Positions 2,690 to 46,416 are shown, counted from the stretch's first letter. The stretch: 64,000 nt of DNA from Planctomycetota bacterium (GCA_044222185.1 JBGANV010000008.1:192001-256000), one strand, 5' to 3'. The notes: generated by a model not told the origin, from the letters alone. Made by a program: numbers and translations.

Positions 2690-4711
2690 TCACGGCCCGA
2701 ACCGCACCTCGACCGCGTTCGAGAGCGCGACGCCCGTCGACGGATGGATCACCGCGGCCTGCAAACCGAGCGTGAGTCCCGCGAGCGGCGGCGGCGCCAG
2801 GACAGGCAGGTCGAGCACGCCCAGAAGGCCTGTGTTCGAGAACCCGAACGCGGGATCCAACCCGTTGACGAGGATCGAGAACGGGTCGAGATCCAGCTGC
2901 CCGATGCCTGGAAACAGCGTCGTCCCCGGAAGCGTGAACCCTCCGAGCATCACGATCGGCTGGAGCGGCGCGCCCAGGATCCCGATCGTGAACGGAGAGT
3001 CGATCGTGACGTCGACGAAGTAGGGTCCCGGTTGGTTCGTCGCGACGGACTCGCCGTTGGCGTTCGTGGCGCCTGCGATGTCGAGGATCGCCCTTCCCGG
3101 CTGAGGTGCCTGGCCGACCGTGTCCGCGGTAGCGCCCGTCACGGCGATGGCGTCCAGGATCCAGGAGCTGGAACCGGTTCCCATGTACGTGAAGCGAACT
3201 CCGAAGTCCGACGCGGGCGCGAGGAAGGAGGTGAGATCGACGGTCACAGGGTCACCCGCCACCGTGCCAGACGAGTTGGCGTAGACAGGGAACGCCACGT
3301 TGTTGACGAGAACCTCGACCAGGCACGAGCTCGCGCAGCCGGGGCACGTCCGGTGCCACTGCAGGAACGAGAGCACGATCGGCCCCGCGACCGGCGGCGC
3401 GGCGAGGCCGGGGGTCGTCATCGTGGTCGACAACGCCGCCGGGGCGCTCGCGTTCGAGTCCGCGATCGCCGCGTTGCACCCGAACACCGGAGGAAGACTC
3501 ACCGCTGGCGGTCGATCGAACCGGAATCCAGGGAAGCCCGAGAGGGTCTGCACGGACCACCCGGCCGGCGCGAACGCGGAGACCTCGTCGTCGAAGTCGG
3601 AGCGTTCGAGGATCGGAGTGCCACGACTTGCGGCACAGTTCGCGCCGACGTGCACGGGCGCACCGCCGCAGAGCATGGCGAGCGTCATCCCCGGGGGAAG
3701 CATCGGGATGCCGGCAACGCAGACCTCGGCAGCCTGGAACACGGGAGTGCCCGGCGCCACGCCCTGGATCAGCAGGGGCTGGCCATGTATGTCGACACGG
3801 ATCGAGCCCGCCGTGGCCGTGAACACGCCCGACTGAGGTGCGTTGACGTTGATGGGCGCGGGCGAGCTGACGCAGACCTCGGAGCCGCGGAGCCGGTCCG
3901 CAGGCTGAAAGTTCACGGGCCCCATGCTGTACACGGCGCCGTCGCGACCCCTGCGTCCGAAGTGGAGTCCGCCGTTGGGCGAGTAGTTCCCACCCGTCCC
4001 GCCTTTCAGATCGCCACGGCGTCCGCCGGGCGTGGTCGTCGTGGCCTGCGCGCGGCCGCCGCTTCCACCGTCACGCCCCTCGCACCCTCCTGGCGCGCCA
4101 GTCTTGTCGCCCCCGTTTCCGCCACGAACGACGCCATCGTTGCCGAGAGCAACGCCGTGAAGCGTCACGGAACCACCGGTGCCCGCTCCCTTGCCATCAC
4201 CACCTGCGCCTCCATTCCCACCGCGGATCGTTCCGCCAGCCGCGACCGTGATCGGTCCCTGCGCGGTGACGGTCACACCGCCACCGGATCGTCCATCCGA
4301 GGTCGCCGTGCTGTTCGCGCCATCGGCTCCCTGGATCGTCGCCCCGGTACCGACGTGCACGCCGCCCGCGCCCGCCGTCACGCGGATTCCCGGCGTCCCG
4401 CGGAGGCGGGTGTCGTCCCCCGCGTTCCCGTTCGCCGAGGGTTGGAGGACCAGTTCGTGGACCCTGACCGCCGCGGCCTCGATGATCCCCGAGTCGCCTG
4501 GGACGACGGCCTTGTCGAGCGGCCCAGGAGTTCCCGCCGGGTTCCAGTTCGCCGGGTCGGTCCATTGGGCGTTCCCCCCGGCACCCGTCCAGGTTCGCAC
4601 CGCTCCACCGGGTGCCTGCGCGGCACACCGGTCGAACGACCCGATCGCGAGGACCAACGAGCCGATGATGATGGAACCACGGACACCGGATGCTGAGATC
4701 GTGCGCTTCAT
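2690..4711 (-). CDS. Secreted Gly-rich protein with a beta-sandwich domain and the conserved C-terminal domain
   Basis: Signal peptide, WTGAGGNAQWTDPANW motif, GGNGG/GGxGG repeats, ending LAGLTLGLQAAVIHPSTGVALSNAVEVRFGP. Confidence 0.85.
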   Translation of the reverse strand: MKRTISASGVRGSIIIGSLVLAIGSFDRCAAQAPGGAVRTWTGAGGNAQWTDPANWNPAGTPGPLDKAVVPGDSGIIEAAAVRVHELVLQPSANGNAGDDTRLRGTPGIRVTAGAGGVHVGTGATIQGADGANSTATSDGRSGGGVTVTAQGPITVAAGGTIRGGNGGAGGDGKGAGTGGSVTLHGVALGNDGVVRGGNGGDKTGAPGGCEGRDGGSGGRAQATTTTPGGRRGDLKGGTGGNYSPNGGLHFGRRGRDGAVYSMGPVNFQPADRLRGSEVCVSSPAPINVNAPQSGVFTATAGSIRVDIHGQPLLIQGVAPGTPVFQAAEVCVAGIPMLPPGMTLAMLCGGAPVHVGANCAASRGTPILERSDFDDEVSAFAPAGWSVQTLSGFPGFRFDRPPAVSLPPVFGCNAAIADSNASAPAALSTTMTTPGLAAPPVAGPIVLSFLQWHRTCPGCASSCLVEVLVNNVAFPVYANSSGTVAGDPVTVDLTSFLAPASDFGVRFTYMGTGSSSWILDAIAVTGATADTVGQAPQPGRAILDIAGATNANGESVATNQPGPYFVDVTIDSPFTIGILGAPLQPIVMLGGFTLPGTTLFPGIGQLDLDPFSILVNGLDPAFGFSNTGLLGVLDLPVLAPPPLAGLTLGLQAAVIHPSTGVALSNAVEVRFGP

Positions 4712-4794
4712 GACTTGCCTGTTCTGGGGGATCGCGCCGCGCGGCGAGCGCCAGGCCCGATCGGGCCGCCGTGCGTCGCGCGACGTGAAGCCAA

Positions 4795-4869
4795 GACGGC
4801 GCCCGTCGACCGATTGCTACGGAATCGCGAACTTCGCGGATTCCGTAGCGAAATCAGGGCGGCGTCGTC
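4795..4869. promoter_or_regulatory. Back-to-back putative ECF promoters built on an inverted repeat
   Basis: GCTACGGAATC (4816-4826) and GATTCCGTAGC (4839-4849) form a perfect inverted repeat. The + strand reads CCGTAGC-N16-CGTC (4843-4869) and the - strand reads CCGTAGC-N17-CGTC (4822-4795). Confidence 0.6.
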
Positions 4870-4881
4870 CTACCGGGGAGC

Positions 4882-6155: not shown

Positions 6156-6167
6156 TGCCGTCGGGTC

Positions 6168-8453: not shown

Positions 8454-8702
8454 GAATCGGTTTGCCGGGATACTCGCGGCGGCCCGAGCGGCGCCGTCCC
8501 CCGAACATGCGCGCCAGCATACCCGCGAGCGAGCCGCGGGACGGCCGCGCAAGCCCAGCCTGGGCCTGATCGATGACTCTCGCGAGGCTGGCAGCCGGCC
8601 GCGGCGGAAATTCGAGCTCGCCATGTGACGGACGCGCCATTGGTCCGATGGGGAGGTCCGCGCGGATCCGCGCCCCCGAGGCCGCAGCCAAGGAGTCACG
8701 TC

Positions 8703-11648
8703 ATGGAAGTCACGACAGCGATTCGACTGACCGTTGCAGGCGTCGCCCTCGGTCTTTGCTGCGTTGCAACCCGCGCGCAGGCATCTCCCCCCGTCGAAGG
8801 CGACCGTCCGGGGACGACTTCGGCGGCTCGCATCATCCCGTTTCCAGGCCTGGGGTTGGACGTCACCCGCACGAAGACGGTCGACGCCCGATCGGGTGAG
8901 GTACGCGTCGTCTGGCGCGACCAGCTCGGGCGCGTGTGGCGATACGCGGACCTGGTCCAAGGTGAGCGCGACGCCCGCGCGGCCCAGCCCCGATTGAAGT
9001 TGCATGCCGATCTACGCGCGGAGATCGACCGCGACCCGCGCACCGTGCGGAACGTGATCGCCTGGCTCGCGTGCGACACGCAGCGGCTCGACGCGTACGC
9101 GGCGCAAGCCCACGCGACGAGCGATCCTCCGGACGGTGACGCCCGCATACTCGAAGCGATCGAGAAGCGCATCGAAGACGATCTCCGCGACGAGATGTCG
9201 CGCACGACGGCCCCGTTCGCCGCGCGCCTCGAGGCCGCGGGGCTCCGCGTCCGGAGCGTCGCCAGCACGGCCCCCGTCGTGTTCTTCGACGCGACGGGAC
9301 CGGCCGTCCTGTCCATCGCCGCCATGCCGGAGGTCGACGCCCTCTATCTCGAGACCGCTGCACGCGCCGACGCGGACGAGAGCTCGAACGCAACGCACCG
9401 GGTCGCGCGCGTGCACCGCCACGGAGTTCGCGGCGGCGCGCTCCGCGTTGCGGTTCTCGAAGACAACGGCATCTCGCAAGCCTGCCCGTACCTCACCGTC
9501 GATCAGTGGTCCGACCCGTTCAACATCGTGCCGGACCAACACGTCCATGCGACGGCGGGCTGCCTCGCGTCGCGCCTTCCGCAACGGATCGGCGTGGCGC
9601 CGGACGTGACGCTCTTCTGCGCGAACGCCGCGAGCTACTCGGACTCGGACCTGGCGGTGGCCAACGGATGGGCCGTCACGTACGGCGCCCAGGTCATCAA
9701 CATGTCGTTCGCCGGAACCAACCCCACGGGGACGCTGAACTACCTCGACCGGTACTTCGACTTCCAAGCGCGCTACGCCAACGACTCCTACGTCGCCGCC
9801 GCGGGGAACGACGGCATCGGCCACCATGTGAGCTGGCCCGGTTGGAACGTCATCTCCGTGGGCAGCCATTCGGACGGCAACACGGCCGACTGGTCCGACG
9901 ACGCCATGAGTTCGTTCTCCAACACGGGTGACAGCGCCACCGGGTGTCGCAAGCCGACTCTCGTCGCCGTGGGGAGCGACGTCGACACTCTCGGACTCGG
10001 ACCCACGTGGCTGGCCGACGGACTCAACGGGACGAGTTTCTCCGCGCCGGCGTGCTCGGGAACCATGGCCGATGCCCTGATGGTGAATGGCTGGCTCGCC
10101 GCGTATTCGCCGGCGGCGCTGGCGCTGGTGATGGCGACCGCGTGGCACAACGTCGAAGGTGTCGGTCGGTACTCGGACCTGGATGGGGCCGGCGGAATGA
10201 ACACGTTCGCGGCCTATCGTTGCGCCGCCACCAACTCGATCGCCTACGGGCAGCTCACGGCTGCGAACTTCAACAGCCCGGCGGCGACCTACATCCGCAA
10301 CATCATGCTTCGTGGCGGCGACAAGACGCGCATCGCGATCGCGTGGTACTCCGACGGGGACTCGAGCTACACGACGACGGCACTCCAGACCGACCTGGAC
10401 CTTCGCGTGTTCGCCGGCCAGAACCAGTCCGCTGGCGTCGCCCTCGCCTCGTCGTCCTCCTTCGACGACAACTTCGAGATCGTCGAGTTCACGCCGCCCG
10501 TGACGGGCTGGTACTCGGTGAACATCAGCGCACCCACGCTCCTCGCCGGCCACGAGGTCTACGGCCTCGCCTACTCGCAAAAGACGCGCGACACGTCGTC
10601 GTTCACGCTCCGTGCGCGAACGGTCGAGAACTCGCCGCTTGCGGGTCCGACGGTCGGCAACGGCTCCTACTTCATGGATTTCCAGGCCCCGGGAAGCCCG
10701 TCGGCCAGCTGGTTCTCCGTCCCCAGCGGAACCCTCGGCGACGGCTTTCCGATCTCGCCCGAGACCTGGTGCCCCGTGGCATTCGACGGTGTGACGTCGG
10801 TGTTCTTCAACCAGATCGGCATCCCCGGCGGAATTTGGAGCGGATACTCGGGCACGCTCGACGCCGCGGGCGTGGGAACGACCAACCAGGTCTCGATCCC
10901 GGCGATCCCGGGAATCGCGGGGCTGACGATCTACCACGTGGGTTTCACGCTGGCGCCAGGCTCGCCGGACGGGATCAAGGAGATCTCCGAGGTACACGCC
11001 GCCAAGCTGTGGCCCGCAGGCGTCGACCACCCGCTGGCGGACGACGGATCGTTCCAGCAGGTGCTTCCCTTCCCGTTCCGGTTCTTCGGTGTGAACTACA
11101 CCTCCGTCTTCGTGAACGCCAACGGCAACCTCACGTTTGGCGTCGCGGACGCGAGCGCGTCACAGAGCCCGGCTGCGCTCCTCGCCGGCCGGCCGCGAAT
11201 CGCGGCGCTCTGGCGCGACCTCGATCCGTCGACTGCAGGCGCGGAAGGTGCGCCGGCCATTCGCGTGCGCGTCGTCGCACCCGCCGATCCCGAGGTCGTC
11301 ATCGAGTGGACGTCGGTGCCCCGCTTCGGCGTCACGGATGCGAACACCTTCCGGGTGACGCTGCGACCCGACAACTCGATCAAGATCGAGTACCTCGACT
11401 GCGGAGCGACGGACGGCATCGTGGGTGTGGCGCCGGGGTACGGGATTGCGGCGACGGCGCCCATCGACCTGACGCTCCACGGAAACGGCACCTGGTACGC
11501 GGGGCCGAACGAGGCGTATTTCGAGTCGTTCACCGCCGCGAACCCATTGGACCTCGCCAGCACGAACGGCTACTGGAACGAGATCCGCTTCGTCCCCTAC
11601 GACGCCCTCGCCAACAACTACCACGTGTACTTGGACGTGACCCGGTGA
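8703..11648 (+). CDS. Secreted S8 (subtilisin-like) serine protease with an internal conserved beta domain and a C-terminal nidogen-like domain
   Basis: AGGAG RBS, signal peptide, VAVLED, HATAG, AAAGND, NGTSFSAP and TDLDL. The C-terminal region has LPFPFRFFGVNYTSVFVNANGNLTF and IAALWRDLDP. Confidence 0.88.
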   Translation: MEVTTAIRLTVAGVALGLCCVATRAQASPPVEGDRPGTTSAARIIPFPGLGLDVTRTKTVDARSGEVRVVWRDQLGRVWRYADLVQGERDARAAQPRLKLHADLRAEIDRDPRTVRNVIAWLACDTQRLDAYAAQAHATSDPPDGDARILEAIEKRIEDDLRDEMSRTTAPFAARLEAAGLRVRSVASTAPVVFFDATGPAVLSIAAMPEVDALYLETAARADADESSNATHRVARVHRHGVRGGALRVAVLEDNGISQACPYLTVDQWSDPFNIVPDQHVHATAGCLASRLPQRIGVAPDVTLFCANAASYSDSDLAVANGWAVTYGAQVINMSFAGTNPTGTLNYLDRYFDFQARYANDSYVAAAGNDGIGHHVSWPGWNVISVGSHSDGNTADWSDDAMSSFSNTGDSATGCRKPTLVAVGSDVDTLGLGPTWLADGLNGTSFSAPACSGTMADALMVNGWLAAYSPAALALVMATAWHNVEGVGRYSDLDGAGGMNTFAAYRCAATNSIAYGQLTAANFNSPAATYIRNIMLRGGDKTRIAIAWYSDGDSSYTTTALQTDLDLRVFAGQNQSAGVALASSSSFDDNFEIVEFTPPVTGWYSVNISAPTLLAGHEVYGLAYSQKTRDTSSFTLRARTVENSPLAGPTVGNGSYFMDFQAPGSPSASWFSVPSGTLGDGFPISPETWCPVAFDGVTSVFFNQIGIPGGIWSGYSGTLDAAGVGTTNQVSIPAIPGIAGLTIYHVGFTLAPGSPDGIKEISEVHAAKLWPAGVDHPLADDGSFQQVLPFPFRFFGVNYTSVFVNANGNLTFGVADASASQSPAALLAGRPRIAALWRDLDPSTAGAEGAPAIRVRVVAPADPEVVIEWTSVPRFGVTDANTFRVTLRPDNSIKIEYLDCGATDGIVGVAPGYGIAATAPIDLTLHGNGTWYAGPNEAYFESFTAANPLDLASTNGYWNEIRFVPYDALANNYHVYLDVTR

Positions 11649-11701
11649 GTCGCGTGCCCGGCTGAAGCAGCCATCGAACGGACGAGGAGTAGACTCCGGC
11701 C

Positions 11702-14254
11702 ATGGAACGCGGCGAAACGTCACACGAGCCACGAATCGGCGGAGCCTCGCCTCCTCCCGGCGAGGAGGCGGTTCTCGCCGAGTTCCTCGACGTCTACGCG
11801 ACGGACGCCGCGCGCGGCGCGACGCGTACGCTCGAGGAGTACCAGGGCATGTTCCGCGGCTTCGAGGACGCCGTGGCGCGCAGCTTCGAACGACTCCGCG
11901 CGCCGTCGGCGGAACGGCACGAGGAGCCGGAGCGGATCGGCCGCTTCCGCCTGCTGTCCGAGCTGGGCCGCGGAGGCCAAGGCGTCGTCTACCTCGCGGA
12001 GGACGAGCGTCTCGGCCGGCGCGTGGCGCTCAAGGTCATTCGCGGGATCGGCGCGTTCCGCCCCGAAGTCCTCGCGCGGTTCGAGCGCGAGGCCGCGATC
12101 GCGTCGCGTCTGGACCACCCGGGGATCTGCACGGTGCACGAGGCCGGCCAGTCCGGGTCGACCGCGTGGATCGCCATGCGGTACGTGCCCGGGACGACGC
12201 TCGCATCGGTTCTGCGTTCCCAGGCCGGCCGCCCGGACGCCGGGCGGATCGACGCGTTCACAGAGATCGTCGAACGTGCTGCACGCGCACTCCATGCGGC
12301 ACACGAAGCTGGAATCATCCATCGCGACATCAAACCGGCGAACGTCATGCTCGCGCCCGACGGCGCGCCCGTGCTTCTCGACTTCGGCGTCGCACACGAG
12401 TTGCGCGAGGACGCCCACGAGGGGCTGACCGTGACTGGAGACCTGCTCGGAACGCCGGCCTACCTGTCGCCCGAGCAGATCGACCCGGCGCGCGGCCCCA
12501 TCGACCGCCGGTCGGACGTGTGGGCGCTCGGCGTCACGTTGTTCGAGGCGACGACAGGCGCTCGGCCGTTCGACTCCCCGACGCGCGATGGAATGGTGCG
12601 AGCGATCCTCGATCGGGAGATTCCCGATCCCAGGCGCGTGAACCCGGCAATCTCGCGGGATCTTCGCGCCGTGCTCGCGACCGCGATCGAGAAAGATCCG
12701 CGGCGCCGGTACGCGACGGCGGCCGATCTCGCCGACGACCTCGCGCGGTTGCGCGCGCGGCAGCCCGTGCGGGCGCGACCCGCGGGCGTGCTCGTCCGGA
12801 CGCGGCGCTTCTGCCAGCGCGAGCCGCTGGTCGCATGGAGCCTCGCCGTGGCGTTCGTCGGGTTGGCAGTAGGGCTCGTCATCGCGCTGGGTTCGCTCGC
12901 GAACGCGCAGCGGCAGCGTGATGCGACGGAGACTGCGCTGCGCGCCTACGACCAGTTGGCGGACGTCGTCGTCGTCGCCGATCTGCTCGCGACCGTGGAC
13001 GATCTCTGGCCACGGCGCCCGGAGAAGCTCGTCGCCATCCGGGAATGGGTCGCCTCGGCGCGCGAGGTCCTCGCTCGCCGCGAGATGCATCGGCAGGCAT
13101 TGTCCCTGCTCGGTGCTCGCCGCGACGGCGATGCCGTTGACGCACGCGTGCGGTGGCGCCGCTCGATCCTCGAAACGTTGATGTCCGATCTGGGGCGCCT
13201 GGAGACGGCGGTTGCCGACGTGGCGAAGAGGGAGGCGATCGCGTCCGACGTCGTCCGTCGCACCATCACCGAGCACGAAGCGCGATGGCGCGAGTGCATC
13301 GACCAGCTCGGCGGCGATCCCCGGTTCGCTCACGTCCATCTGGAGCCACGGCCCGGATTGATTCCGCTTGGTCGCAACCAGGACTCGGGGAACTGGGAAT
13401 TCTGGCTCGCGGAGAGCGGTGATGCGCCAGCCGTCAACACGTCGGATTCCGTGAAGCGCGCGGTCGTCGGCGACGCGACGGGGCTCGTCTTCGTCCTCCT
13501 TCCCGGTGGATCGTTCACCATGGGCGCACAGGCCGTGGATCCGGACGCACCGACGTTCGACCCCGCCGCCCGATCGGACGAAGCGGTCGCGACCGTGATG
13601 CTCGATCCATTCTTCATCTCGAAGTTCGAGATGACGCAGGGACAGTGGCTCACGATCGCGGGCACGAACCCCTCGACCTACTCGCCGGAGCGCGTGCTCT
13701 ACGGCGCACCGGCCACGCTCGCTCACCCGGTCGAACAGGTGGACTTCAACACCGCGCGGAAGGTCCTCCGCAGGCTCGACCTCGACCTCCCGACGGAAGC
13801 ACAGTGGGAATACGCCTGCCGCGCGGGCACGAACACGGCCTGGTCGACGGGCCACGACGTCCATGCGCTCGCGGGCGCGGCGAACCTGGCCGACTCGGCG
13901 TTCAAGCGTGCGCAATCAGGCGATCCCGCCACGGGCGTGGAGCTCTGGTTGGATGACCGATATCCATGTCACGCGCCGGTCGGCACGTTCGCGCCCAATC
14001 CGCTCGGCCTTCACGACATGCACGGCAACGTCCTCGAGTGGTGTCTCGACGCGTACGTTCCGGCGCCGCACGCACCGAGGCCCGGCGACGGTCTTCGAGA
14101 GGCCGGCGAGGGTCCCACGGGTGTTGCTCGCGGCGGCAGTTTCTACACCGACGCCGCCGTCGCACGGTCCGCGGCCCGGTTCGCGCCGCGCCGGTCGAAT
14201 GCCGCGATCTATCTGGGAGTCCGGCCCGTCATGGCGGCTCGCCTCACGCGCTGA
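11702..14254 (+). CDS. Ser/Thr protein kinase - TM - FGE-sulfatase fusion
   Basis: LGRGGQGVVY, VALK, HRDIKPANV, DFG, GTPAYLSPEQ, DVWALG, a TM helix, then LPTEAQWEYACRAG, LHDMHGNVLEW and RGGSF. Confidence 0.95.
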   Translation: MERGETSHEPRIGGASPPPGEEAVLAEFLDVYATDAARGATRTLEEYQGMFRGFEDAVARSFERLRAPSAERHEEPERIGRFRLLSELGRGGQGVVYLAEDERLGRRVALKVIRGIGAFRPEVLARFEREAAIASRLDHPGICTVHEAGQSGSTAWIAMRYVPGTTLASVLRSQAGRPDAGRIDAFTEIVERAARALHAAHEAGIIHRDIKPANVMLAPDGAPVLLDFGVAHELREDAHEGLTVTGDLLGTPAYLSPEQIDPARGPIDRRSDVWALGVTLFEATTGARPFDSPTRDGMVRAILDREIPDPRRVNPAISRDLRAVLATAIEKDPRRRYATAADLADDLARLRARQPVRARPAGVLVRTRRFCQREPLVAWSLAVAFVGLAVGLVIALGSLANAQRQRDATETALRAYDQLADVVVVADLLATVDDLWPRRPEKLVAIREWVASAREVLARREMHRQALSLLGARRDGDAVDARVRWRRSILETLMSDLGRLETAVADVAKREAIASDVVRRTITEHEARWRECIDQLGGDPRFAHVHLEPRPGLIPLGRNQDSGNWEFWLAESGDAPAVNTSDSVKRAVVGDATGLVFVLLPGGSFTMGAQAVDPDAPTFDPAARSDEAVATVMLDPFFISKFEMTQGQWLTIAGTNPSTYSPERVLYGAPATLAHPVEQVDFNTARKVLRRLDLDLPTEAQWEYACRAGTNTAWSTGHDVHALAGAANLADSAFKRAQSGDPATGVELWLDDRYPCHAPVGTFAPNPLGLHDMHGNVLEWCLDAYVPAPHAPRPGDGLREAGEGPTGVARGGSFYTDAAVARSAARFAPRRSNAAIYLGVRPVMAARLTR

Positions 14255-14278
14255 CGCAGGAAGCGCGCCCCGGCTTCG

Positions 14279-14953
14279 TCACGCGTCCGACAGCTCGTCG
14301 ATGAACGACGGCGGCAGACAGTCGCGCAGCTCCGCGAGGGCGCGCGCGTACCGCATGCGCAGGGTGCCTTCATCGACGCCGAGCTTGCTCGCGGCGACGG
14401 CGTAGGGCATCTCTTCGATGGCCCGCAGGATGAGGATCTCGCGATGAGCCGGGGTGAGCGCCAGCAGCATCGCGTCGATCCGACCGACGGACTCGCGCCG
14501 CATGCACTGCGTGACGACGCCAGCGACATCGGCCGTGATCTCGCGGCTGTCGCCCCTCTCCTCCGCGTTCGAACCTCCCAATTCCACCACGCCCGGTTTC
14601 CCAGCCACGTGCTTCTCGATGAGGTGCTGATAGCTGCGCAGGAGTATGGTTCCGAGGAAGCGGAGCAGCACCGGCGTGAAGCGGCCCTCGCGCGCGACGA
14701 TGTTGCCGAGCTTCGGCAACGCGGCCGCCCACACCTTCTGCACGAGGTCTTCGGGGTCGTAGAGACCCTGCAGATGTCGGCTCAGTCGGTATCGTGCCTG
14801 CGTCATGAGGAGCGGCGTGAAGTGTTCGACGATCCACTCGAGACTGACGCGCTCGCCCTCGATCGCACGCCGGACGTGCAGGCTCGTCACGTCGGAACCA
14901 CTCACGGGCGGTCGGTTCCGCGTTCGGTCGGAATCGGGAGGAACTGTGGGCAT
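14279..14953 (-). CDS. ECF sigma-70 factor (kinase-associated type)
   Basis: DPEDLVQ and HREILILR...LRMRYARALAELR. Shares QARYR, R[DE]GR[YF]TPVLxRFL and LPxSxxD motifs with 1929..2591. Confidence 0.9.
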   Translation of the reverse strand: MPTVPPDSDRTRNRPPVSGSDVTSLHVRRAIEGERVSLEWIVEHFTPLLMTQARYRLSRHLQGLYDPEDLVQKVWAAALPKLGNIVAREGRFTPVLLRFLGTILLRSYQHLIEKHVAGKPGVVELGGSNAEERGDSREITADVAGVVTQCMRRESVGRIDAMLLALTPAHREILILRAIEEMPYAVAASKLGVDEGTLRMRYARALAELRDCLPPSFIDELSDA

Positions 14954-14987
14954 CGCGCATCAGCCTACTCTGACGGATCGGTCGGAT

Positions 14988-15110
14988 TGGCAGTGGCTGC
15001 ACAAGTTCCGCGAAGCGATCCACCGCCGCGACCACGCACCCCTGACGGGGGACGTCGAGATCGACGAGGCGTACGTGGGCGGGCCCGAGCCGGGCGTTCA
15101 AGGGCGCGAC
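14988..15110 (+). mobile_element. IS1595-family (ISXO2-like) transposase remnant
   Basis: Translates as WQWLHKFREAIHRRDHAPLTGDVEIDEAYVGGPEPGVQGR, the W..LHK.R...L.G.VEIDE.YVGG signature of IS1595 transposases. No start codon, zinc ribbon or remaining DDE domain. Confidence 0.85.
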
Positions 15111-15118
15111 CTCCGTGA

Positions 15119-15286
15119 GAACAAGTGTACTTCAGCTTCGGTCCGGTGCCCTCATACCTGATTGGGTCCACGCTCTACGTGCAGGCCGTCGCACTCCACA
15201 ACTCACTCCCCGGAGGCGTGGGGCTCAGCACGCACGGAAACCCCGCGCTGCCGACACCGGCCCGCCGGCTCGACTTCGTGCCCTAG
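15119..15286 (+). pseudogene. 3' remnant of a gene ending in the conserved C-terminal domain
   Basis: The frame after TGA 15116-15118 reads EQVYFSFGPVPSYLIGSTLYVQAVALHNSLPGGVGLSTHGNPALPTPARRLDFVP-TAG, matching the PxxLxGxxhxhQAh motif. Not in the ORF track. Confidence 0.6.
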
Positions 15287-27960: not shown

Positions 27961-27992
27961 GCTCCATCTCCGTTCTCGAGAACGGACGGAGC

Positions 27993-29024: not shown

Positions 29025-29281
29025 GGAATTCCTCACTCTCGGCAACGGTACGGTGGGCGATCCACGAACGCCTCCGCCACGCGGCGAAGGCCGGAACCGC
29101 GAACTGTTGCGAAGCTTACCTCACGGCGCCGAAGGCGTTGCGCTCCATCGCCGAGGGGCCGCACGGAATTTCCCGACTACCGGCGGTCAGGGACGCCCGC
29201 TGAGGGCGGCACGACGCGACGGGCGGGTGTAAGCTTCTCGCGCTGGCAGAAAATCCCAGGAACTGCCGGCAGGAGCCGCCC

Positions 29282-31789: not shown

Positions 31790-31859
31790 CGCGATCGCGG
31801 CGCGCTCTTTCCACGCGCGAGACTCCGAGCGTATGCTGCGGACCCGGAGGTCCTCGTCC

Positions 31860-33479
31860 ATGTTCGACATCAGCTCGCGCGCCGCGTTCGCCGCGGCAAT
31901 GACGTTCGTCGCCGCGACGTGCGGAGCCCAGACCACGATCTTCACGTTCAGCGGCGCCACACCCGGTGAGACGTACGGAGCCTCCGTGCGCGGAGTGACC
32001 GACCTGAACCTCGACGGGTTTCCGGATCTCGTCGTCGGAGCACCGGGAGCGCCGCCCAACGGCCGCGTTTCCGTGATCTCGGGATTCGACGGAGCCGTCC
32101 TGTACGAAGTCCTCGGAACCGTGACGAGTGGATTCGGCGTATCCGTCTCCGATGCCGGTGACGTCAACGCGGACGGCGCGCCGGACCTGATCCTCGGCGG
32201 CATGAACGGCTCGACGGGATACGCGCAGGTGGTCTCCGGTCTCACGGGCACGGTCATCTACACCTTCCAGACCGGTGGCAGCTTCGACGGGTTCGGCATC
32301 AGCGTGAGCGGAGCGGGCGACGTCGACAACGACGGGTACGACGACGTGATCGTGGGCGGTTTCTCGTCCGCAACCGTGTTCAGCGGACTCACGGGTCAAA
32401 CGCTGTTCACCGTCACTCTGGGCGGGTTCACGATCCAGGGTCTGGCCGTCGCGGCGGCGGGCGACGTCGACAACGATGGGTTCGACGACGTGCTCGTCGG
32501 AGACGAAAGCGCGGCCACGGGGCCCGGTGTGTTCAGCGGCGGCGTCGTTCGGCTCTACGCCGGGCCGTCGGGTGCCACGCTTCGCACGGTCGGCGGCGCC
32601 ACGTTCGAATTCCTCGGACATTCCGTTGCGGGGCTGGGTGACGTGAATGGCGACGGGGTCAGGGACTTCATCGCCGGCGGACCGCAGGCCGCATCGAGCA
32701 CCGGGCTCGCGCGGATCTACTCGGGGCAGACCGGAGGCGTCATCCGCACGTCGTCGAGCCCTCTCGCGAGCCTCCAGTTCGGATCGGCCGTGGCGAACGC
32801 GCGCGACGCGAACGGCGACGGGGTCGATGACGTGATCGTCTCCGGCATCGGTGGTGGACCGAATGCGAATTTCCCTGGGGTGGTCGTCGTCCAATCGGGC
32901 CTGACCGGGGCGACCCTCGCGACGGTGACCGGGAACCCCTTCGACCGGCTCGGGTACGGGGTGTCATCCGCTGGCGATCTCACCGCCGATGGTGCGCCGG
33001 AGATCATCCTCGGCGCGCCGTCGTCGGGATTCGGCGGTCCGCCGGGCTACGCGCGCGTCGTCTCGCTGGGATCGATCCCAGCCGCTGCGGCGACACCCGT
33101 GGGATCGGGATGCGGAGCCGGCGCGATTCCACCGGTCCTCACCGTGTCGCCAGCGCCCATCCTCGGGCAGACGGCCACGCTCGCGGTGACGCTGGCGACG
33201 GCGCAGCGGAACGGGCTCGTCTTCGCGGCGCTTCCGCCTGCAACCGCCCAGCCGATCGGCGGCGGATGCGTGGTCTACCTTCCGCTCGGCACCATCGCGA
33301 GCTGGCTCTCGATTCCGATCACGACGGACGCGTCCGGGTCGTCGGCGCTCTCCATCCCCCTCGCCGGCGTTCCCACACTGGCTGGAACGCAGGTGGCATT
33401 GCAGGCCGTCGTCCTCCCCACGAGCGGTCCGCTCGGCTTCGATCTCACGAATGCGGTGGTCGTGACCCTCGGGTTCTGA
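31860..33479 (+). CDS. Secreted FG-GAP (integrin-alpha type) repeat protein with the conserved C-terminal domain
   Basis: About seven FG.SV...GDV[DN].DG..D...G repeats, ending PTLAGTQVALQAVVLPTSGPLGFDLTNAVVVTLGF. Confidence 0.92.
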   Translation: MFDISSRAAFAAAMTFVAATCGAQTTIFTFSGATPGETYGASVRGVTDLNLDGFPDLVVGAPGAPPNGRVSVISGFDGAVLYEVLGTVTSGFGVSVSDAGDVNADGAPDLILGGMNGSTGYAQVVSGLTGTVIYTFQTGGSFDGFGISVSGAGDVDNDGYDDVIVGGFSSATVFSGLTGQTLFTVTLGGFTIQGLAVAAAGDVDNDGFDDVLVGDESAATGPGVFSGGVVRLYAGPSGATLRTVGGATFEFLGHSVAGLGDVNGDGVRDFIAGGPQAASSTGLARIYSGQTGGVIRTSSSPLASLQFGSAVANARDANGDGVDDVIVSGIGGGPNANFPGVVVVQSGLTGATLATVTGNPFDRLGYGVSSAGDLTADGAPEIILGAPSSGFGGPPGYARVVSLGSIPAAAATPVGSGCGAGAIPPVLTVSPAPILGQTATLAVTLATAQRNGLVFAALPPATAQPIGGGCVVYLPLGTIASWLSIPITTDASGSSALSIPLAGVPTLAGTQVALQAVVLPTSGPLGFDLTNAVVVTLGF

Positions 33480-38282: not shown

Positions 38283-39677
38283 ATGTCACTTGCAAACATC
38301 CGGCCAGTCGTCGTTCCGTTGCTCCTCCTGTCATGCGCCCTGCCCATCGCCGCGCAGGGCCCTGGGAGCTGCGGATTCCACCTGGACGTCCTCGCCGATC
38401 GCACGTCGACTCACGCTGCGATTGCCGACATGCCCGGCGCCCCGGGCTCCGGCGGCGCAGGCTATCCTGCCGGCGCTCCCGGCAATCCGTACACGGCGTA
38501 CGTGACGCCGGGAACGGTGTTCAAACTCCAGCTCTCCGTGCCGCCGAGCACACTCGGCCCGAGGATCGGCACCGGAAGCCTGGTCACCATCCTGTGGTCG
38601 CTGGGCACTCCGAACGTCGCGGTGCCGACCCCCGCTGGCGGCCTCGCGCCGTGTCAGCCGGGCCAGCCTTGGATCATCTCCGTACTACCGGTGATCCAGG
38701 GCGCGATCCTCGACGGGATCGGGTGGATCAACGTGCCCGTTCCTCCGACACGACCCGCCGACCCCGGCCATCCGTACAAGCTCGAAGTGACGCTTCTGTA
38801 CCCACCGCAGGTCGGTGGCGTTCCGGTGATGTTCCAGGCCGCCGCGATCACGCCGCAAGGCCTCCTCGCGGTCTCGAACGGCGTGTCCCTGATCGCTGGC
38901 GTCAACGGAAGCGAGCAGAGCGTGCTGGGCGCCATGGGTGGATGCCCCGGCGGCGTGAGTCCGTTCGATGAAGGCGAGGCGGCTCTGCCGACGCCACCGG
39001 CCTTCACCTTCTATGGGTTCCCTGCCGGCGTCACGTTCATGAACGTGAACGGGTATCTGTCCTTCACGCCCGCGAGCTGCGACCGAACCGGCTCGTCGGG
39101 AGACCTCGGCTGCGCGCCAGCGACGGTGAATGCCTCGCCCCGCATCGCCGCCAATCACTTCGACGCCGACTTCGCGCTCGGCGCCACACCACCGCGGATC
39201 GACGACGTGACGTTCGAGATCGCCCCTCCGGGACCGAACTGGCCGCAACGGCACATCTATCGCTGGAAGAACGCCGTTCCGCGCCTGTCGCCGTCGGCCC
39301 CGCCTGCAATCGACACCGACTACGCATCGATGGTGTGCGAGCTGTGGGCCGGCGCGTCCGTGCCGGGCGGCGCGGGTCCGTCGACGATCGTCGTCGTTCG
39401 ACAGGACACCCATCCGGTGTCGCGCATGGATCACCACGACATGATCGGCATCGGACCCGGTGTCGCAGGCCAGGGGTTCGGCGGTCCGCCGCCCAACTGC
39501 TGGGCGACGGCACTCTGGTCCCTCTATGCCACGCCGGGTTTCGCCGGCGGCCCGGGCCACGCGATCTACCAGGATGCGATTTACGACAGCTCGATCCTCG
39601 GCAACCTCGCGGTGGTCTTCACACCGCAGGTCCAGATCCCAGTCCTGCCGCTCCCCTATCGGGTGACGACGTACTGA
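38283..39677 (+). CDS. Secreted protein: conserved beta domain followed by a nidogen-like domain
   Basis: AAGGAG RBS, signal peptide, internal PPQVGGVPVMFQAAAITPQGLLAVSNGVSLI, then FTFYG....FMNVNGYLSF and PRIAANHFD. Confidence 0.8.
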   Translation: MSLANIRPVVVPLLLLSCALPIAAQGPGSCGFHLDVLADRTSTHAAIADMPGAPGSGGAGYPAGAPGNPYTAYVTPGTVFKLQLSVPPSTLGPRIGTGSLVTILWSLGTPNVAVPTPAGGLAPCQPGQPWIISVLPVIQGAILDGIGWINVPVPPTRPADPGHPYKLEVTLLYPPQVGGVPVMFQAAAITPQGLLAVSNGVSLIAGVNGSEQSVLGAMGGCPGGVSPFDEGEAALPTPPAFTFYGFPAGVTFMNVNGYLSFTPASCDRTGSSGDLGCAPATVNASPRIAANHFDADFALGATPPRIDDVTFEIAPPGPNWPQRHIYRWKNAVPRLSPSAPPAIDTDYASMVCELWAGASVPGGAGPSTIVVVRQDTHPVSRMDHHDMIGIGPGVAGQGFGGPPPNCWATALWSLYATPGFAGGPGHAIYQDAIYDSSILGNLAVVFTPQVQIPVLPLPYRVTTY

Positions 39678-39690
39678 ATCCCGCGGCGTG

Positions 39691-40875
39691 TCAGTTGACG
39701 ACGTGAGTGATCGCGTTCGACACCTGGCTGGCCGGCGTCGCGCCCGCCGGCCCGACGAACCCGAGAGCCACCGCATCGAAGGTGAACCCGAGCGGGACGC
39801 CGCCGACGGGGCCGAGCGTGATCCCGCCGCAGGAGCTCAGCGGCCCCACGAACGGGAAACCGGAGATGAACTGTCCGACGATCTCGGAGATCGCCGGCGC
39901 GATCCCGTAGAAGTAGCCCGTGGGAGCTGCGCCGGTGTTCACCGTGCTCACGGCGAGGAAGTAGGTGCCGCTCGCGGGGCCATCGGCGATGTAGAGCTGC
40001 AGCGAGCCCGAGCCGAGAGGCTGGGTTGCCGCCAGCGTCATCGGGCCCGTGGCGAGGTCGAGCGTGAACTGGCTCCCGAATCCGGATCCTGCCGACACGC
40101 GGATGTAGTACGTCGCGCCGGCCTGCGACGGGAAGCTGACGCTCGAGCCCACGAAGCACCCGGGCGAGTTGTCGTTGCAGGCGATCTGCAGGCCGCCGCA
40201 ACCGGTGTAGACGCTGATGACGGAGTCGTAGAAGTAGCAGTCGGTGTTCACCGTCAGCACGGTGCTGCATGGCGTCGTATATCGGAACCACAGATCGTGC
40301 GTGGCCGCGCCGCAGCTCGGCGGAGGACCGGCGCTCGGCGTCGCCCCGACGTTCAGGAACGGGCCGTTGTGCCCCTTCGTGATCGGAATGGCTCCGGAGC
40401 ACTCGTCGTTGGCCGGCGGCGGGATGGGCGGGCTGATGTTCACGGGGAAGGTCCCCGTCTGTGCCGAGAGGACGTAGCTCCCCACGCGGATGTAGTACGG
40501 CGTGCCGGCGGTGAGGTTCACGTAGACGAGTGACCGGTTGCCGCACCATCGATCGTTGCACCCGATGTAGAAGGCATTGCCGATCGGGCACACGGCAAAG
40601 ACGGCGAGCACGGTCTGAACGAGCGTGCCGCCGCCGCAGGTGTCGATCGCGTACGGCGCCGTCGCCGGAGGAATGAACCGGAACCACACGTCGTTGATGA
40701 TCCCCGCGCAGGAGATCGTCGACGACGTGGTCGACCCCGTGTTCGTGAAGAGGCCGTTGGATCCGATGAACACGGGAATGGCCGTCGTGCAGTCGTCGTT
40801 GGTCACCTGGGCGCCGACGTGAACGACGACGGCGAGGACGAGCAACGCGCACCGAGCGAGGTTCGGGAGAGTCAT
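39691..40875 (-). CDS. Secreted protein with two Cys-containing NDxC/DxWF (PPC-like) repeats and the conserved C-terminal domain
   Basis: NDDC...DVWF...CND...YYIRV appears twice; ends FDAVALGF...SQVSNAITHVVN. Confidence 0.85.
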   Translation of the reverse strand: MTLPNLARCALLVLAVVVHVGAQVTNDDCTTAIPVFIGSNGLFTNTGSTTSSTISCAGIINDVWFRFIPPATAPYAIDTCGGGTLVQTVLAVFAVCPIGNAFYIGCNDRWCGNRSLVYVNLTAGTPYYIRVGSYVLSAQTGTFPVNISPPIPPPANDECSGAIPITKGHNGPFLNVGATPSAGPPPSCGAATHDLWFRYTTPCSTVLTVNTDCYFYDSVISVYTGCGGLQIACNDNSPGCFVGSSVSFPSQAGATYYIRVSAGSGFGSQFTLDLATGPMTLAATQPLGSGSLQLYIADGPASGTYFLAVSTVNTGAAPTGYFYGIAPAISEIVGQFISGFPFVGPLSSCGGITLGPVGGVPLGFTFDAVALGFVGPAGATPASQVSNAITHVVN

Positions 40876-40937
40876 GAAAGTTCTTTCTGAGCCGATGGAT
40901 TCGACCGGGTGACCGCCGTTCCGCCGTCGCGATCCAC

Positions 40938-42530
40938 TCACTGGACGGTGTAGGTCATGGATGTCGACGCGGAGGCGGGGACGAGCGACCCACCCGCGTT
41001 GAAGCCCACGGCCACGCTGTCGAACCGCAACCCCGGCGGAAGTCCGACGTAGGGGCCGACGACTGCGGTTCCGCATGGCGTCAGCGGTCCGAAGAACGGC
41101 GACCCGGGCTGCACTTCGGAGACGAGCTCGAGCAACGTGAGGTCGATCCCGAAGAACGGCCCCGCGGGAGCGACGCCCGTGTGCTGCAGGGCGATGGCGA
41201 GCAGGAACCCTCCGTTCGGAGCTCCATTCACGATGTCGGTGCGTAGCGACCCCGACCCTGCCGGCTGCCAGAGGATCTGTCGGAGGGGTGCGTTCGTGAC
41301 CGGTGCGATCGTCAGGTTGAAGATGCCCGGGCCGATGTTGTTCGGGGCGACCCGGATCCAATACGTCCGTCCGACGAGCGCCGTCAGTGCGACGGTGGCT
41401 CCTCCAGGCCCGCAGAAAGGATCGTCATCGGCGCAGTCGATGAGGTTCCCACCGCAACCCTCGTACACGTCGAGCACGGTGTCGTACCCGCCGCATCCGC
41501 TGCTGATGGTGATGTCCTGGCTGCAACCCGTGTTCAGGTAGGAGAACCAGACGTCTGGGGAGGCCCCGCCGAGACAGCCCGTGAAAGTCGCGCTCGGTGT
41601 GGCAATCCCGTTGGAGAACGGGCCATTCACTCCCATGACGACAGGCGTCGCCGTGGAGCAGTCGTCTCCGACCCCGCGTGCGATCTCCAGGTTGAATACT
41701 CCAGGCTGAGCCGCCTTCGCGGCCACGCGGATGAAGTACACCGCGCCCTGACCCGCGTTGAAACCGAGCGAGGACCCGCCCGACGGGCAGGACGGGGTGT
41801 CGTCGTTGCACGCAATGGCGGCTCCCCCGCAAGCGCCGTAAACGCTGAGCACCGTGTCGTACTGACCGCACCCCGTGGAAACGACGACGGGACCCGTGGC
41901 GAGCGAATGCACGTATCGAAACCACAGGTCGTAAAGGCCATTCCCAGCACAGTTCACGGCTCCGGCCGTCGGCGTCGCCGCGATGTTGTTGAACGGACCC
42001 GACGCCCCCAGCGGCACGGTGAGCGCCTGTGCGCACGTGTCGTTCGTCGCCGCAGGCACCGCCGCCTCCACCGTCAGGTAGAACGTCCCGCCGGGGCCGT
42101 CGTTCGCCGAACCCACCCCGACGATGTACGACGCGCCCCACAGCAAATACGCCGTGACCGACGACCGCGACCCGCAGGAGTTGTCATCGCAGCCGAGCGA
42201 GTTGGCTCCGCAATAATCGAAAACGTCGACGACGCTGTCGGTCAGCGAGCCCGCCGCGAAACCCGCCGGCGTACAGGTCTTGAACGTGTAGGGCGCAGTG
42301 AACGCCGGCGTGAAGACGAACCAGACATCCTTGCCCGCGCCGCCGCAGGTCATCCAACCGGATTGAGTCGCCCCCACGTTCGTGAAGCGGAATCCGGACG
42401 CTGCCGGTGTCGGGTTCACGCCAGCAACGATGTTGATGGGGGTCGTGCACTCGTCGTTCGAAACCTGTGCGGACGCTGCCGTTGCAAGAACGAGGCACGC
42501 AACGCCGAGGGCGAGGAACTTCATCACCAT
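40938..42530 (-). CDS. Tandem paralog with three NDxC/DxWF repeats and the conserved C-terminal domain
   Basis: NDEC, NDTC and GDDC repeats; ends GLPPGLRFDSVAVGF...STSMTYTVQ. Start at 42530 or 42524. Confidence 0.85.
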   Translation of the reverse strand: MVMKFLALGVACLVLATAASAQVSNDECTTPINIVAGVNPTPAASGFRFTNVGATQSGWMTCGGAGKDVWFVFTPAFTAPYTFKTCTPAGFAAGSLTDSVVDVFDYCGANSLGCDDNSCGSRSSVTAYLLWGASYIVGVGSANDGPGGTFYLTVEAAVPAATNDTCAQALTVPLGASGPFNNIAATPTAGAVNCAGNGLYDLWFRYVHSLATGPVVVSTGCGQYDTVLSVYGACGGAAIACNDDTPSCPSGGSSLGFNAGQGAVYFIRVAAKAAQPGVFNLEIARGVGDDCSTATPVVMGVNGPFSNGIATPSATFTGCLGGASPDVWFSYLNTGCSQDITISSGCGGYDTVLDVYEGCGGNLIDCADDDPFCGPGGATVALTALVGRTYWIRVAPNNIGPGIFNLTIAPVTNAPLRQILWQPAGSGSLRTDIVNGAPNGGFLLAIALQHTGVAPAGPFFGIDLTLLELVSEVQPGSPFFGPLTPCGTAVVGPYVGLPPGLRFDSVAVGFNAGGSLVPASASTSMTYTVQ

Positions 42531-42950
42531 GTCTCCGGAAGGGCGAGCGTGGCACTCGAGGGTGAGGAGTGCGCGGCTGGGAATCGACGTGGCCGAAGAG
42601 CAGTCAACCGAGGCATAGACGGCCGAGGCGGCAGTTTGCGGGGCGCGACGGATCGGATCAACCGCTTGCGCCACCTCGCCGGCGCGCGCCTCAGGTTGGG
42701 AAACTTCTGGTTCCCTCAGGCGGGACGCCGCGCGTCACCTCAGTAAAAAAAACCGCCAGGTTCTGTTTGCCGGGTCGACGCAGCCGGGTGTACCGTCGCC
42801 GCCCTGTTGCACGCGCCGCCGGATCGTTTTGCACGATCACAGTTCGAAGGTGTGCTCCCCGGAACCCGCGAACGAGTTCGCCCCCGGCTGCCGCGCAGTC
42901 CAGGCATCGTCGTTACTCGGCCCCTCGATCTGAAGACAGGAGTCCTTGCC

Positions 42951-44665: not shown

Positions 44666-44670
44666 GCCGA

Positions 44671-46416
44671 TCACTGCAAGACGAGGTCGTGGGCGTCGGT
44701 CATGGCGAAGAGGCCGTTGGCGGCCCCCAGCGATGCGACCGCGCCCTGGACGCGCAGCGTCAGGCCCGCAAGTCCCGGCGGAACGACGAAGCCCACACCT
44801 ACGCCGAGGGCGGAAAGCGCCGAGCCCCCGAGCGCCGCCGGCTGGGATCCATCGACCAACAAGAAGAAGCTCGCCAGGTCGATGTGCACCTGCGGCAAGC
44901 CGGGAGTCGCCGCCGGCGGCGACGCGTTCGCGTAGCCCGTCGCGGCGATGAACGGCGTGGCACCGATGAAGCTCCAGTTCGGCGTCGTCATGGAGATGCC
45001 GACCGTCGACCCGCCCGGGGCGAGCTTCGTGCCCACGTTGGCGAGCGTCAGGTCGACGGACGTCGCGAGCACCAGGTCCTCACCTGATCCCACGAGCGGC
45101 GCCACGTACTCGTCCACTCCGAGGTCGACCGTACCTGCGACGATGCGCGGGTTGCCGTCGAAATCCGTAGGCGCGAGCGACGGCGCGGCGTTCGTCCCGA
45201 TGTTGCGGCATGCCGACGTGGACGAGAGATGGAAGTCGAAATTCGCCGGGTCGACGAACCCTGGGGCCAGGCTCACGTTGCCCGCGCCGGGTGCCCCGCC
45301 CTGGACGTTGCTGAACGTGATGGAGATCGCCGGCGGCACGGTCGTTCCCGCGATCTGGTTCGGAGAATTGCCCGTCACGATCGAGTTGACGACGGTCGGC
45401 GCATTGCCCCCCACGACGAAGATCCCGCCGCAGCACGCGGACGCGACGTTCGACGCGATGCTGGCGTTCGTGATCGTGACGGAGGGGCCGTCGGTCGAGA
45501 TCGCGCCGCCGTTCACCGCAGTGTTGGCGGCGAAAATGCAGTTCGCGAAGTCGACGGTGGAAAGCGATGCACTCACCGCTCCGCCGTTCTGGAGCGCGTG
45601 GTTCTGGATGAACCGGCAATCGGTTCCACGCAGCGTGCCGAAGGTGCTCTTGGCCGCGCCACCCGACGTGGCGGCGTTGGAGTGGAGCGAACAGCGCACG
45701 AGAGTCGCGTTGCCGAACGAGACGTTGATCGCTCCACCGTCGTTCACTGCGGTGTTGCTCGTGAACGTGCAGCCCTCGAAGGTCGCCGACGCGTTGTTCA
45801 GGGACACCGCCGCGCCCTGATTGCTGGCATTGGCCGTGAAGCTGCAGTTCACGATCGTCGGAAACGAGTTGAACAGCACGGCGATCGCGCCGCCTTCGAC
45901 GGTCGCCGAGTTGCCGAGGAACGTGCAACCCGAGATCGACGGCGATGCCGCGAACAGGCAGATGCCGCCGCCCGTGTTGCTGACGCTGCCGTTCGCGATC
46001 ACGCAGTCCTCCACTCGCGGCGAGGCGCCGACGATGAGGAAGATGCCGCCATCGACGATGGGGCCTCCGTTGCGAAGCGTGAACCCGCGAATCATCGCCG
46101 CCGGCGTCTCGCCTGAGGTGAATTGCACGACCCGGTTCAGGTGCGCCGCATCGATCACCGTCGCGGCTGAACCCGCCGTGCTCCGCACGGTGATGTTCTT
46201 GCCGCCGAAGTTCAGGCTCTCGGAGTAGACGCCGGGCCCGACGAGCACCGTGTCGCCGTTGATCGCGGCGTTGATGCCGGCCTGAACGCTCGGAAACGGC
46301 GTCGCAAGCGTGCCGTTGCCCGGAGGTGCGGCGCCGGCCTGCACCCGCCACGTGGTCTGCGAGGTGACGGCGGAAGCGATCAACACGAACGCGACGAGGA
46401 ATCTGCTTTTCGGCAT
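44671..46416 (-). CDS. Secreted parallel beta-helix (GGAI...F..N, Pmp-like repeat) protein with the conserved C-terminal domain
   Basis: GDTVLVGPGVY, repeated F..N.A..GGA[IV], DFHL...S.C...G, VDLGVDE; ends PPGLAGLTLRVQGAV...MTDAHDLVLQ. Confidence 0.88.
   Translation of the reverse strand: MPKSRFLVAFVLIASAVTSQTTWRVQAGAAPPGNGTLATPFPSVQAGINAAINGDTVLVGPGVYSESLNFGGKNITVRSTAGSAATVIDAAHLNRVVQFTSGETPAAMIRGFTLRNGGPIVDGGIFLIVGASPRVEDCVIANGSVSNTGGGICLFAASPSISGCTFLGNSATVEGGAIAVLFNSFPTIVNCSFTANASNQGAAVSLNNASATFEGCTFTSNTAVNDGGAINVSFGNATLVRCSLHSNAATSGGAAKSTFGTLRGTDCRFIQNHALQNGGAVSASLSTVDFANCIFAANTAVNGGAISTDGPSVTITNASIASNVASACCGGIFVVGGNAPTVVNSIVTGNSPNQIAGTTVPPAISITFSNVQGGAPGAGNVSLAPGFVDPANFDFHLSSTSACRNIGTNAAPSLAPTDFDGNPRIVAGTVDLGVDEYVAPLVGSGEDLVLATSVDLTLANVGTKLAPGGSTVGISMTTPNWSFIGATPFIAATGYANASPPAATPGLPQVHIDLASFFLLVDGSQPAALGGSALSALGVGVGFVVPPGLAGLTLRVQGAVASLGAANGLFAMTDAHDLVLQ

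Follow-up and report, generated by a model that had tools for sequence, protein, structure and literature searches.

A small Ig-like domain at the C-terminus of diverse secreted proteins from a Planctomycetota lineage, a candidate surface-retention module

Here, we describe a small domain, predicted to have an immunoglobulin-like (Ig-like) fold, that ends many otherwise unrelated secreted proteins of a Planctomycetota bacterium. The starting point was a stretch of 64,000 nucleotides of its genome (GCA_044222185.1, JBGANV010000008.1:192001-256000), which we call the window; window positions are counted from its first letter. A preliminary description of the window had claimed that eight signal-peptide proteins with diverse cargo end in a common domain, and profiles derived from the whole genome, together with profile-profile links, bear this out. 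Sequence comparison indicates that all of these tails belong to one uncatalogued superfamily, the remote type being linked least firmly. We regard the domain as a probable, so far undescribed surface-retention module that sits where other bacteria have their sorting or anchoring tags. The genes concerned are as follows.

2690 to 4711, minus strand: Gly-rich secreted protein with no Pfam family in its cargo; terminal Ig-like domain at about 2693-3076, of the bridging 2690-type.
8625 to 11648, plus strand: S8 subtilase; internal Ig-like domain at 10596-10997, followed by a C-terminal NIDO-like module of about 216 amino acids (module X) at 10998-11645.
15119 to 15283, plus strand: open frame of 55 codons, a gene remnant resembling the last third of the domain (independent E-value, iE, 0.015).
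15412 to 17979, plus strand: FG-GAP repeat protein; terminal domain at 17617-17976, main type, in a variant without Cys.
23319 to 24833, minus strand: protein with three CHRD domains; terminal domain at 23322-23720, main type.
27993 to 29045, minus strand: secreted protein without a Pfam family; terminal domain at about 27996-28400, 27993-type.
31833 to 33479, plus strand: FG-GAP repeat protein; terminal domain at 33093-33476, main type, with a confident structure model.
38283 to 39677, plus strand: secreted protein with module X at about 38931-39644; no profile supports an Ig-like copy upstream of it.
39691 to 40878, minus strand: PF23759 galactose-binding-like repeat protein; terminal domain at 39694-40098, remote 39691-type, also modelled.
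40938 to 42533, minus strand: PF23759 repeat protein; terminal domain at 40941-41345, remote 39691-type.
44671 to 46476, minus strand: beta-helix (PMP-repeat-like) protein; terminal domain at about 44674-45078, 44671-type.

All eight proteins with a terminal domain were found where the preliminary description had placed them, each ending in a domain of 120-135 amino acids, and their last 150 residues align with each other. In 8/8, the N-terminus has a hydrophobic, signal-peptide-like stretch that closes with A/S-Q, as judged by eye and with a crude heuristic. When the window proteins were scanned against Pfam and NCBIfam at E<=0.01, no family was placed over the tail of any of the nine proteins that carry the domain, and a search of the PDB for sequence relatives gave 0 matches. 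Pfam, NCBIfam and the PDB thus have no entry for the domain, and it is uncatalogued. A full-text literature search that did not cover subscription journals found no description of the domain, nor of the GC-type dockerins discussed below.

The genome comprises 7.08 Mb in 16 contigs, is 93.8% complete and has a G+C content of about 68%. Its probable membership of the Planctomycetota is in keeping with five occurrences of PSD1 (PF07587) and, as a weak pointer, with a best match of the window's MoxR, at 62% identity, to a Planctomycetota metagenome-assembled genome; DUF1559 (PF07596) has no match, the control genomes being silent for it as well. We searched it as 45,997 stop-to-stop open reading frames (ORFs), each of at least 80 amino acids. 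A starting profile built from the eight window tails was iterated over these ORFs until it converged on what we call the main type, with 216 domains in 212 of the 45,997 ORFs, 167 of them ending within 5 residues of the stop codon. The converged profile no longer includes the weaker window tails, so the scores of the latter are unbiased. It matches the tails of the 31833 (E 6e-23), 23319 (6e-20) and 15412 (4e-18) proteins, the internal copy in the S8 protease (2e-8), the 2690 tail (1e-7) and, marginally, the 44671 tail (0.018), and finds no match to the tails of 27993, 39691 and 40938. Neither this profile nor that of any other subfamily has a match among the reversed ORFs used as a control.

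Eleven segments had initially been assigned to the domain, and nine of them hold, including the internal copy in the S8 protease. The copy claimed in 38283..39677 does not: no domain profile reaches E<2 there, the resemblance seen with hhalign, at 32%, is confined to the last 31 residues, and the protein ends instead in module X, which it has in common with the S8 protease. The remnant at 15119-15283 is a weak case, its match being confined to the last third of the profile. Just upstream of it, in another frame, is what reads like a fragment of an IS1595/ISXO2-type transposase (together with the remnant, window ~14990-15283), which would suggest that a tail gene at this place was broken by an insertion. 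Several more short domain remnants occur in the genome. The GH2, NosD-PKD, PDZ and cytochrome proteins of the window lack the domain in the profile scan, as had been claimed.

The weaker tails each seeded their own jackhmmer run over the genome ORFs, and on this basis we distinguish several subfamilies. The main type, which comprises the 31833, 23319 and 15412 tails and the S8 copy, usually has a Cys pair, together with conserved, nearly invariant Gly, Pro and Gln positions. Two bridging types are represented by the 2690 tail (39 ORFs, 26 copies within 5 amino acids of the stop, 15 in common with the main type) and the 27993 tail (88 ORFs, 48 such copies, 35 in common with the main type; this search did not converge). 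The 44671 tail defines a separate type, whose search converged at 25 ORFs with 21 copies within 5 amino acids of the stop. The 39691 and 40938 tails form the remote type: as seeds they retrieve 66 and 67 ORFs, with 64 and 65 copies within 5 amino acids of the stop, and 0 or 1 overlap with the main type.

Profile-profile comparison links these types to the main type with probabilities of 98.7% for the 27993-type and 98.7% for the 2690-type (values that are partly circular, as these two profiles have members in common with the main type), 96.0% for the 44671-type and 91.3% for the 39691-type. With small alignments (25 versus 22 sequences), the link between the 39691-type and the main type falls to 28.8%, with an E-value of 6e-4, and is colinear over 94 columns.

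A model of the 31833 tail, based on a 25-row alignment, has a predicted local distance difference test score (pLDDT) of 94.4 and a predicted template modelling score (pTM) of 0.86; that of the 39691-type, based on 22 rows, has a pLDDT of 87.8 and a pTM of 0.80. The order is the same in both models, with three strands followed by a short fourth region, a single short helix and finally four strands. As modelled, the domain is an Ig-like beta-sandwich of about 125 residues, with two sheets and roughly 7-9 strands. Foldseek against the PDB returns generic sandwiches only (TM-score <=0.53), and twelve PDB entries are common to the top-50 lists of the two models. The best VIA-align neighbours are MG, Ig and FN3 domains, with Z 8.5 (root-mean-square deviation, rmsd, 3.1 over 103 residues) and Z 8.0 (rmsd 3.2 over 95 residues). 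The segments' supposed common alignment and fold are supported by two confident Ig-like models and by the profile links, with the remote type as the weak point when alignments are small. A homodimer prediction for the main-type domain scored 0.00, which is no answer and counts neither way.

The lack of any structural neighbour beyond generic Ig/FN3 and CBM-like domains (Z<=8.5) is what would be expected of an ordinary adhesive or ligand-binding Ig-like module for external particles, polysaccharides or prey. Such a module would have no sorting role, and its terminal position would reflect nothing but easy domain accretion. Adhesin-like repeats do dominate the cargo, and the domain is also found N-terminally, internally and alone. 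Generic spacer or adhesion Ig domains, however, are usually arranged in tandem and may lie anywhere in a protein, whereas 365 of the 367 ORFs described below have one copy only and 78% of the copies are terminal. Proteases and other enzymes carry the domain as well, besides the adhesin-like repeats, and homologous cargo from other organisms bears established sorting or anchoring tags in this position. For these reasons, we regard a purely adhesive role as doubtful.

The domain had been called Pro/Gly-rich and nearly uncharged, and so it is: in 273 terminal domains, D+E+K+R account for 6.7% of residues, P for 9.9% and G for 12.8%, with 11.2% charged residues in the cargo of the same proteins. 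No transmembrane helix is present in the tails. Signal-peptide-like starts were found for 290 of the 367 tail ORFs and for 336 of 800 control coding ORFs, by a heuristic so permissive that 42% of controls pass. Among the signal-peptide-like ORFs, the hydrophobic core is followed by [AGS]Q in 269 of the 290 with a tail and in 155 of the 336 controls. Within the window, A/S-Q signal-peptide ends are nearly uniform (for example at 4711, 24833, the 33479-side starts and 48382) and extend to secreted proteins that have no tail. They recall the ‘Q-rule’ of the Bacteroidetes. A search for glutaminyl cyclase (PF05096), which might go together with A-Q signal peptides, gave 0 matches in the genome.

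Taken together, the subfamilies amount to 371 domains in 367 ORFs, with a single copy in 365. The bias towards the C-terminus is strong, as a genome-wide count with hidden Markov models (HMMs) demonstrates: 290 of the 371 copies lie within 5 residues of the stop, 10 at 6-20 residues, 7 at 21-100 and 64 at more than 100, so that 78% are terminal and 17% non-terminal. Random placement in an ORF of the median length of 616 amino acids would put only about 1% within 5 residues of the stop. When 20 of the proteins with a non-terminal copy were scanned, the copy was found N-terminal to Kelch repeats in two and to a NosD beta-helix in one; some copies stand upstream of TIG repeats. In at least five proteins, four of them close paralogues, there is nothing but a signal peptide and the domain.

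The 290 terminal copies have no conserved C-terminal residue and no strict motif; the last residue is aromatic in 63 of 290 tails, compared with 77 of 1,500 controls, and basic residues are few. There is no special linker either, the 25 residues upstream of the domain matching the cargo in composition. With neither a conserved last residue nor a special linker, we see no sign of a site for recognition or cleavage.

These numbers bear on whether the domain is a true secretion signal, recognised by an outer-membrane translocon analogous to that of the type IX secretion system (T9SS), and perhaps cleaved and replaced by a covalent anchor. Single copies, ending within 5 residues of the stop in 290 of 371 cases, are as such a signal would have them. 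The 64 copies far from the stop, some of them N-terminal to Kelch or NosD domains, the cargo-less proteins and the missing terminal residue or linker are not. We therefore consider a strict C-terminal export signal unlikely, and favour a binding module over it because of the 64 non-terminal copies and the cargo-less ones. That binding should tolerate changes of position is suggested by the same lack of a conserved last residue and a linker, and by the copies N-terminal to Kelch and NosD domains. Of the export, attachment or docking signal originally proposed, then, the appending to diverse signal-peptide proteins stands, and strictly terminal export is the poorer fit.

A further protein, P0007 (G000:C14:150280-153954), of 1,225 codons, reads as a Ser/Thr kinase, one transmembrane helix, a long region, a lectin-like part and a main-type tail. 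We considered it as an inner-membrane kinase with a tail but do not count it as evidence; a second signal-peptide-like segment lies near residue 800, and the ORF is either a real fusion or two genes read through.

Many non-terminal copies share one architecture. In 32 of the 62 ORFs with a non-terminal copy, the protein continues into one homologous C-terminal module of about 204-237 amino acids, module X. A search seeded with the module X of the S8 protease converges at 44 ORFs, with 30 copies ending within 5 residues of the stop, and the Ig-like domain is also present in 32 of these 44 ORFs. Module X matches NIDO (PF06119) weakly, with an E-value of 0.029 and 14.8 bits against a cut-off of 25; in its nearest ESM Atlas clusters (score 0.94), NIDO is found in 12-14% of members.

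The domain is widespread, and it is restricted to certain lineages, as the preliminary description had supposed in calling it lineage-specific with several subfamilies. A profile of 25 domains matches 20,888 clusters at 50% identity with E<=1e-3, and 3,286 with E<=1e-10; in each of the best 150 cluster matches, no more than 9 residues separate the end of the match from that of the protein. Ten top hits looked up by cluster yielded hardly any names, as most are proteins of this same genome. The 30 nearest ESM Atlas clusters have no Pfam family in common, and their commonest phylum is Planctomycetota. The domain is present in 18/18 genomes of the bacterium's own class, each at least 85% complete, and in 25 of 31 genomes of a sample of relatives, including 22/22 from the same order. 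In a phylum-wide sample of 151 genomes, the main type occurs in 31 and is distributed by family: it is found in 3/3 genomes of f24 and 3/3 of f8, and in 0/7 of f7 and 0/7 of f14. The 39691-type occurs in 11 of the 151, all of them among the 31 main-type positives.

The cargo is equally varied. Among 92 representatives of at least 300 amino acids, 47 have cargo without a Pfam family, and in the remaining 45 we find FG-GAP, RCC1, Kelch, Ig I-set, beta-helix, LamG, TIG, MopE, PF23759 or peptidases of families M10, M12A and S1. The peptidases raise the question of whether the domain is a folding aid or pro-domain, similar to the PPC domains (PF04151) that are removed after secretion. PPC is itself a small beta-sandwich found C-terminally on secreted peptidases, and our domain is C-terminal on peptidases of the S8 (window), M10, M12A and trypsin-like (representatives) kinds. 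Most of the tail cargo, however, consists of non-enzymatic repeats rather than peptidases, and stand-alone copies exist. The PPC model has no match to the tails, matching only the cargo of P0010 and P0072, and P0010 has both a PPC domain (831-898) and a tail (1463-1584) in one protein. We consider a pro-domain very improbable.

Homologues of the cargo proteins show what other organisms place at the same position. For the CHRD cargo of the 23319 protein, 57 of the 119 homologues listed carry PF18962, the type A C-terminal domain (CTD) of the T9SS, and one carries a main-type tail. A related observation is that P0211, P0212, P0226, P0231, P0241 and some 30 further CHRD homologues, all without a CTD, have a hydrophobic ‘L/Y-L-P-L/I-V/I’ followed by 2-6 residues to the end; some of these proteins are named Caldilineaceae, and the hydrophobic end may be another unnamed C-terminal signal. 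For the PF23759 cargo of the 40938 protein, 15 of 49 homologues have a 39691-type tail and 14 of 49 a GC-type dockerin (NF041540, E<=1e-3; 5 over the cut-off, 13 terminal and 1, P0191, internal). Two sub-threshold IPTL-CTERM matches and one sub-threshold LPXTG match are also found among the 49. Main-type tails occur on PF23759 cargo too (P0010, P0041 and P0130), so that subfamilies replace each other on one type of cargo. Two PF23759 homologues, P0200 and P0203, end in a tail of a different type again, characterised close to its end by a Cys and an ‘F-N-L-S/T-x-G’ strand, which none of our profiles matches.

The closest parallel is with the T9SS CTDs, each a single small beta-sandwich that ends many unrelated signal-peptide proteins, found at the same position on homologous CHRD cargo (57/119). 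The CTDs are assigned to the Ig-like fold class (PMC4804311); in the T9SS they are cleaved off by PorU, after which the cargo is joined to A-LPS. The claim that the tails resemble none of the known tags holds for sequence and fails for the predicted fold class. A T9SS profile made from the 57 CTDs reaches a probability of no more than 1.2% against the five tail profiles in hhalign, and the CTD model (PF18962 / TIGR04183) has no match in the nine window proteins and 0 matches in the genome, a weaker negative as the control genomes are silent too. The CTD model spans 72 positions, compared with about 125 amino acids for the planctomycete tail; CTDs are always at the extreme C-terminus, whereas 17% of the planctomycete copies are non-terminal; and the tails show no preference for a basic C-terminal residue.

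GC-type dockerins are likewise a C-terminal module appended en masse to secreted proteins, in the same phylum and on PF23759 homologues. They differ in being a repeat module of about 67 positions, not an Ig-like sandwich, and we know of no partner for them. Their model has 0 matches in the genome and none on the window proteins. Across the 151 genomes they are massive in one genus only, in three genomes with 37 scored matches each among 200-222 first-look candidates. The 31 main-type positives include none of the three and themselves lack GC-type dockerins except for one match in G087.

Binding modules such as dockerin/cohesin pairs and SLH modules are position-tolerant and single-copy, and they hold diverse enzymes and adhesins on the cell. 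This mode of binding is the one we propose for the planctomycete domain. The folds are unrelated, and no cohesin-like or wall-polymer partner was found for our domain.

Searches for the machinery of known systems in the genome were negative. For the T9SS, SprA (TIGR04189) has 0 matches, a weaker negative as the control genomes are silent too, and PorV (NF033710) has 0 matches, its control being matched in Bacteroides thetaiotaomicron with a score under the cut-off; no search was made for PorU and PorK-N. PEP-CTERM (TIGR02595) has 0 matches, again a weaker negative with a silent control. Exosortase (PF09721) and sortase (PF04203) have 0 matches each, the controls being matched in one genome and in three genomes, respectively. 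That no other sorting system was found among those searched leaves room for a secretion signal of the kind considered above, as do the T9SS CTDs on the nearest cargo homologues and the shared fold class; no candidate translocon or sortase was found for it, however. For the region of the best-conserved tail gene, contigs of G001 and G004 contain a homologue of this gene and of none of its neighbours, and those of G003 have no match. The surroundings of the gene are thus not kept between the genome and two relatives, and give no lead to any machinery. It had been suggested that the machinery is encoded outside the window. There is no obvious sorting machinery in the window, and no dedicated machinery came to light.

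Our preferred reading, about which we are evenly divided between confidence and doubt, is that the domain is an envelope-retention or surface-display module that binds non-covalently after Sec export. A Planctomycetota lineage has multiplied it onto Sec-exported proteins of many kinds. Once exported, the domain would bind to a component of the envelope, whether a glycan, the wall, a scaffold or a pore protein, so that adhesin-like, propeller-type and hydrolytic cargo would stay on the surface of the cell. It would thereby take the place held in other lineages by T9SS CTDs, GC-type dockerins and CTERM anchors, while being a member of none of these groups. We infer the function, retention or sorting, and the mode, binding, from the positions of the copies and their cargo. 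A bolder version, which we think rather unlikely, makes the superfamily the cargo tag of a new sorting or surface-display system of diderm Planctomycetota, a counterpart of the T9SS with its own outer-membrane receptor or translocon, in which the subfamilies would lead to different sub-routes or docking sites.

Several points weigh against retention at the surface. No partner, ligand or machinery was identified, and external substrates are just as plausible a target for an Ig-like domain carried by surface proteins. Cargo swaps show only that anchors or tags sit at this position, and 62 of the 119 CHRD homologues have no PF18962 in precomputed Pfam annotation, many of them simply ending in a CHRD domain. 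The complementarity with GC-type dockerins comes from a single lineage and counts as one event. To these must be added the permissive signal-peptide heuristic, the tails' lack of a conserved last residue and of a special linker, and the low small-alignment score of the remote type.

Little is known about the way in which planctomycetes put proteins on or outside their unusual envelope, and the domain provides a handle on this question. From sequence alone it defines a candidate surface proteome, the 367 ORFs of one 7.08-Mb genome, and it can be fused to reporters or used as bait for its partner. With a curated model by itself, tens of thousands of ‘hypothetical’ proteins would be better annotated. 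Should the domain prove to be no more than an adhesion module, it still accounts for a major part of the unannotated secretome of these lineages.

The window has some other genes of note. On the minus strand, 49577-53029 encodes a protein of 1,150 amino acids in which N-terminal regions 2 and 4 of an extracytoplasmic function (ECF) sigma factor are followed by CarboxypepD_reg-like and Big_1-like repeats, an unusual fusion. Genes for ECF sigma factors at 1929-2630 and 14279-14953 adjoin tail genes. Two proteins with FGE-sulfatase (SUMF1-like) domains are encoded at 3-1889 and 11702-14254, one of them fused to a Ser/Thr kinase. Lastly, the GH2 ORF (25690-28713, minus strand) and the 27993 gene have about 720 bases in common, read in different frames; the true start of GH2 is probably downstream of 27993, as its Pfam domains begin only at residue 319.

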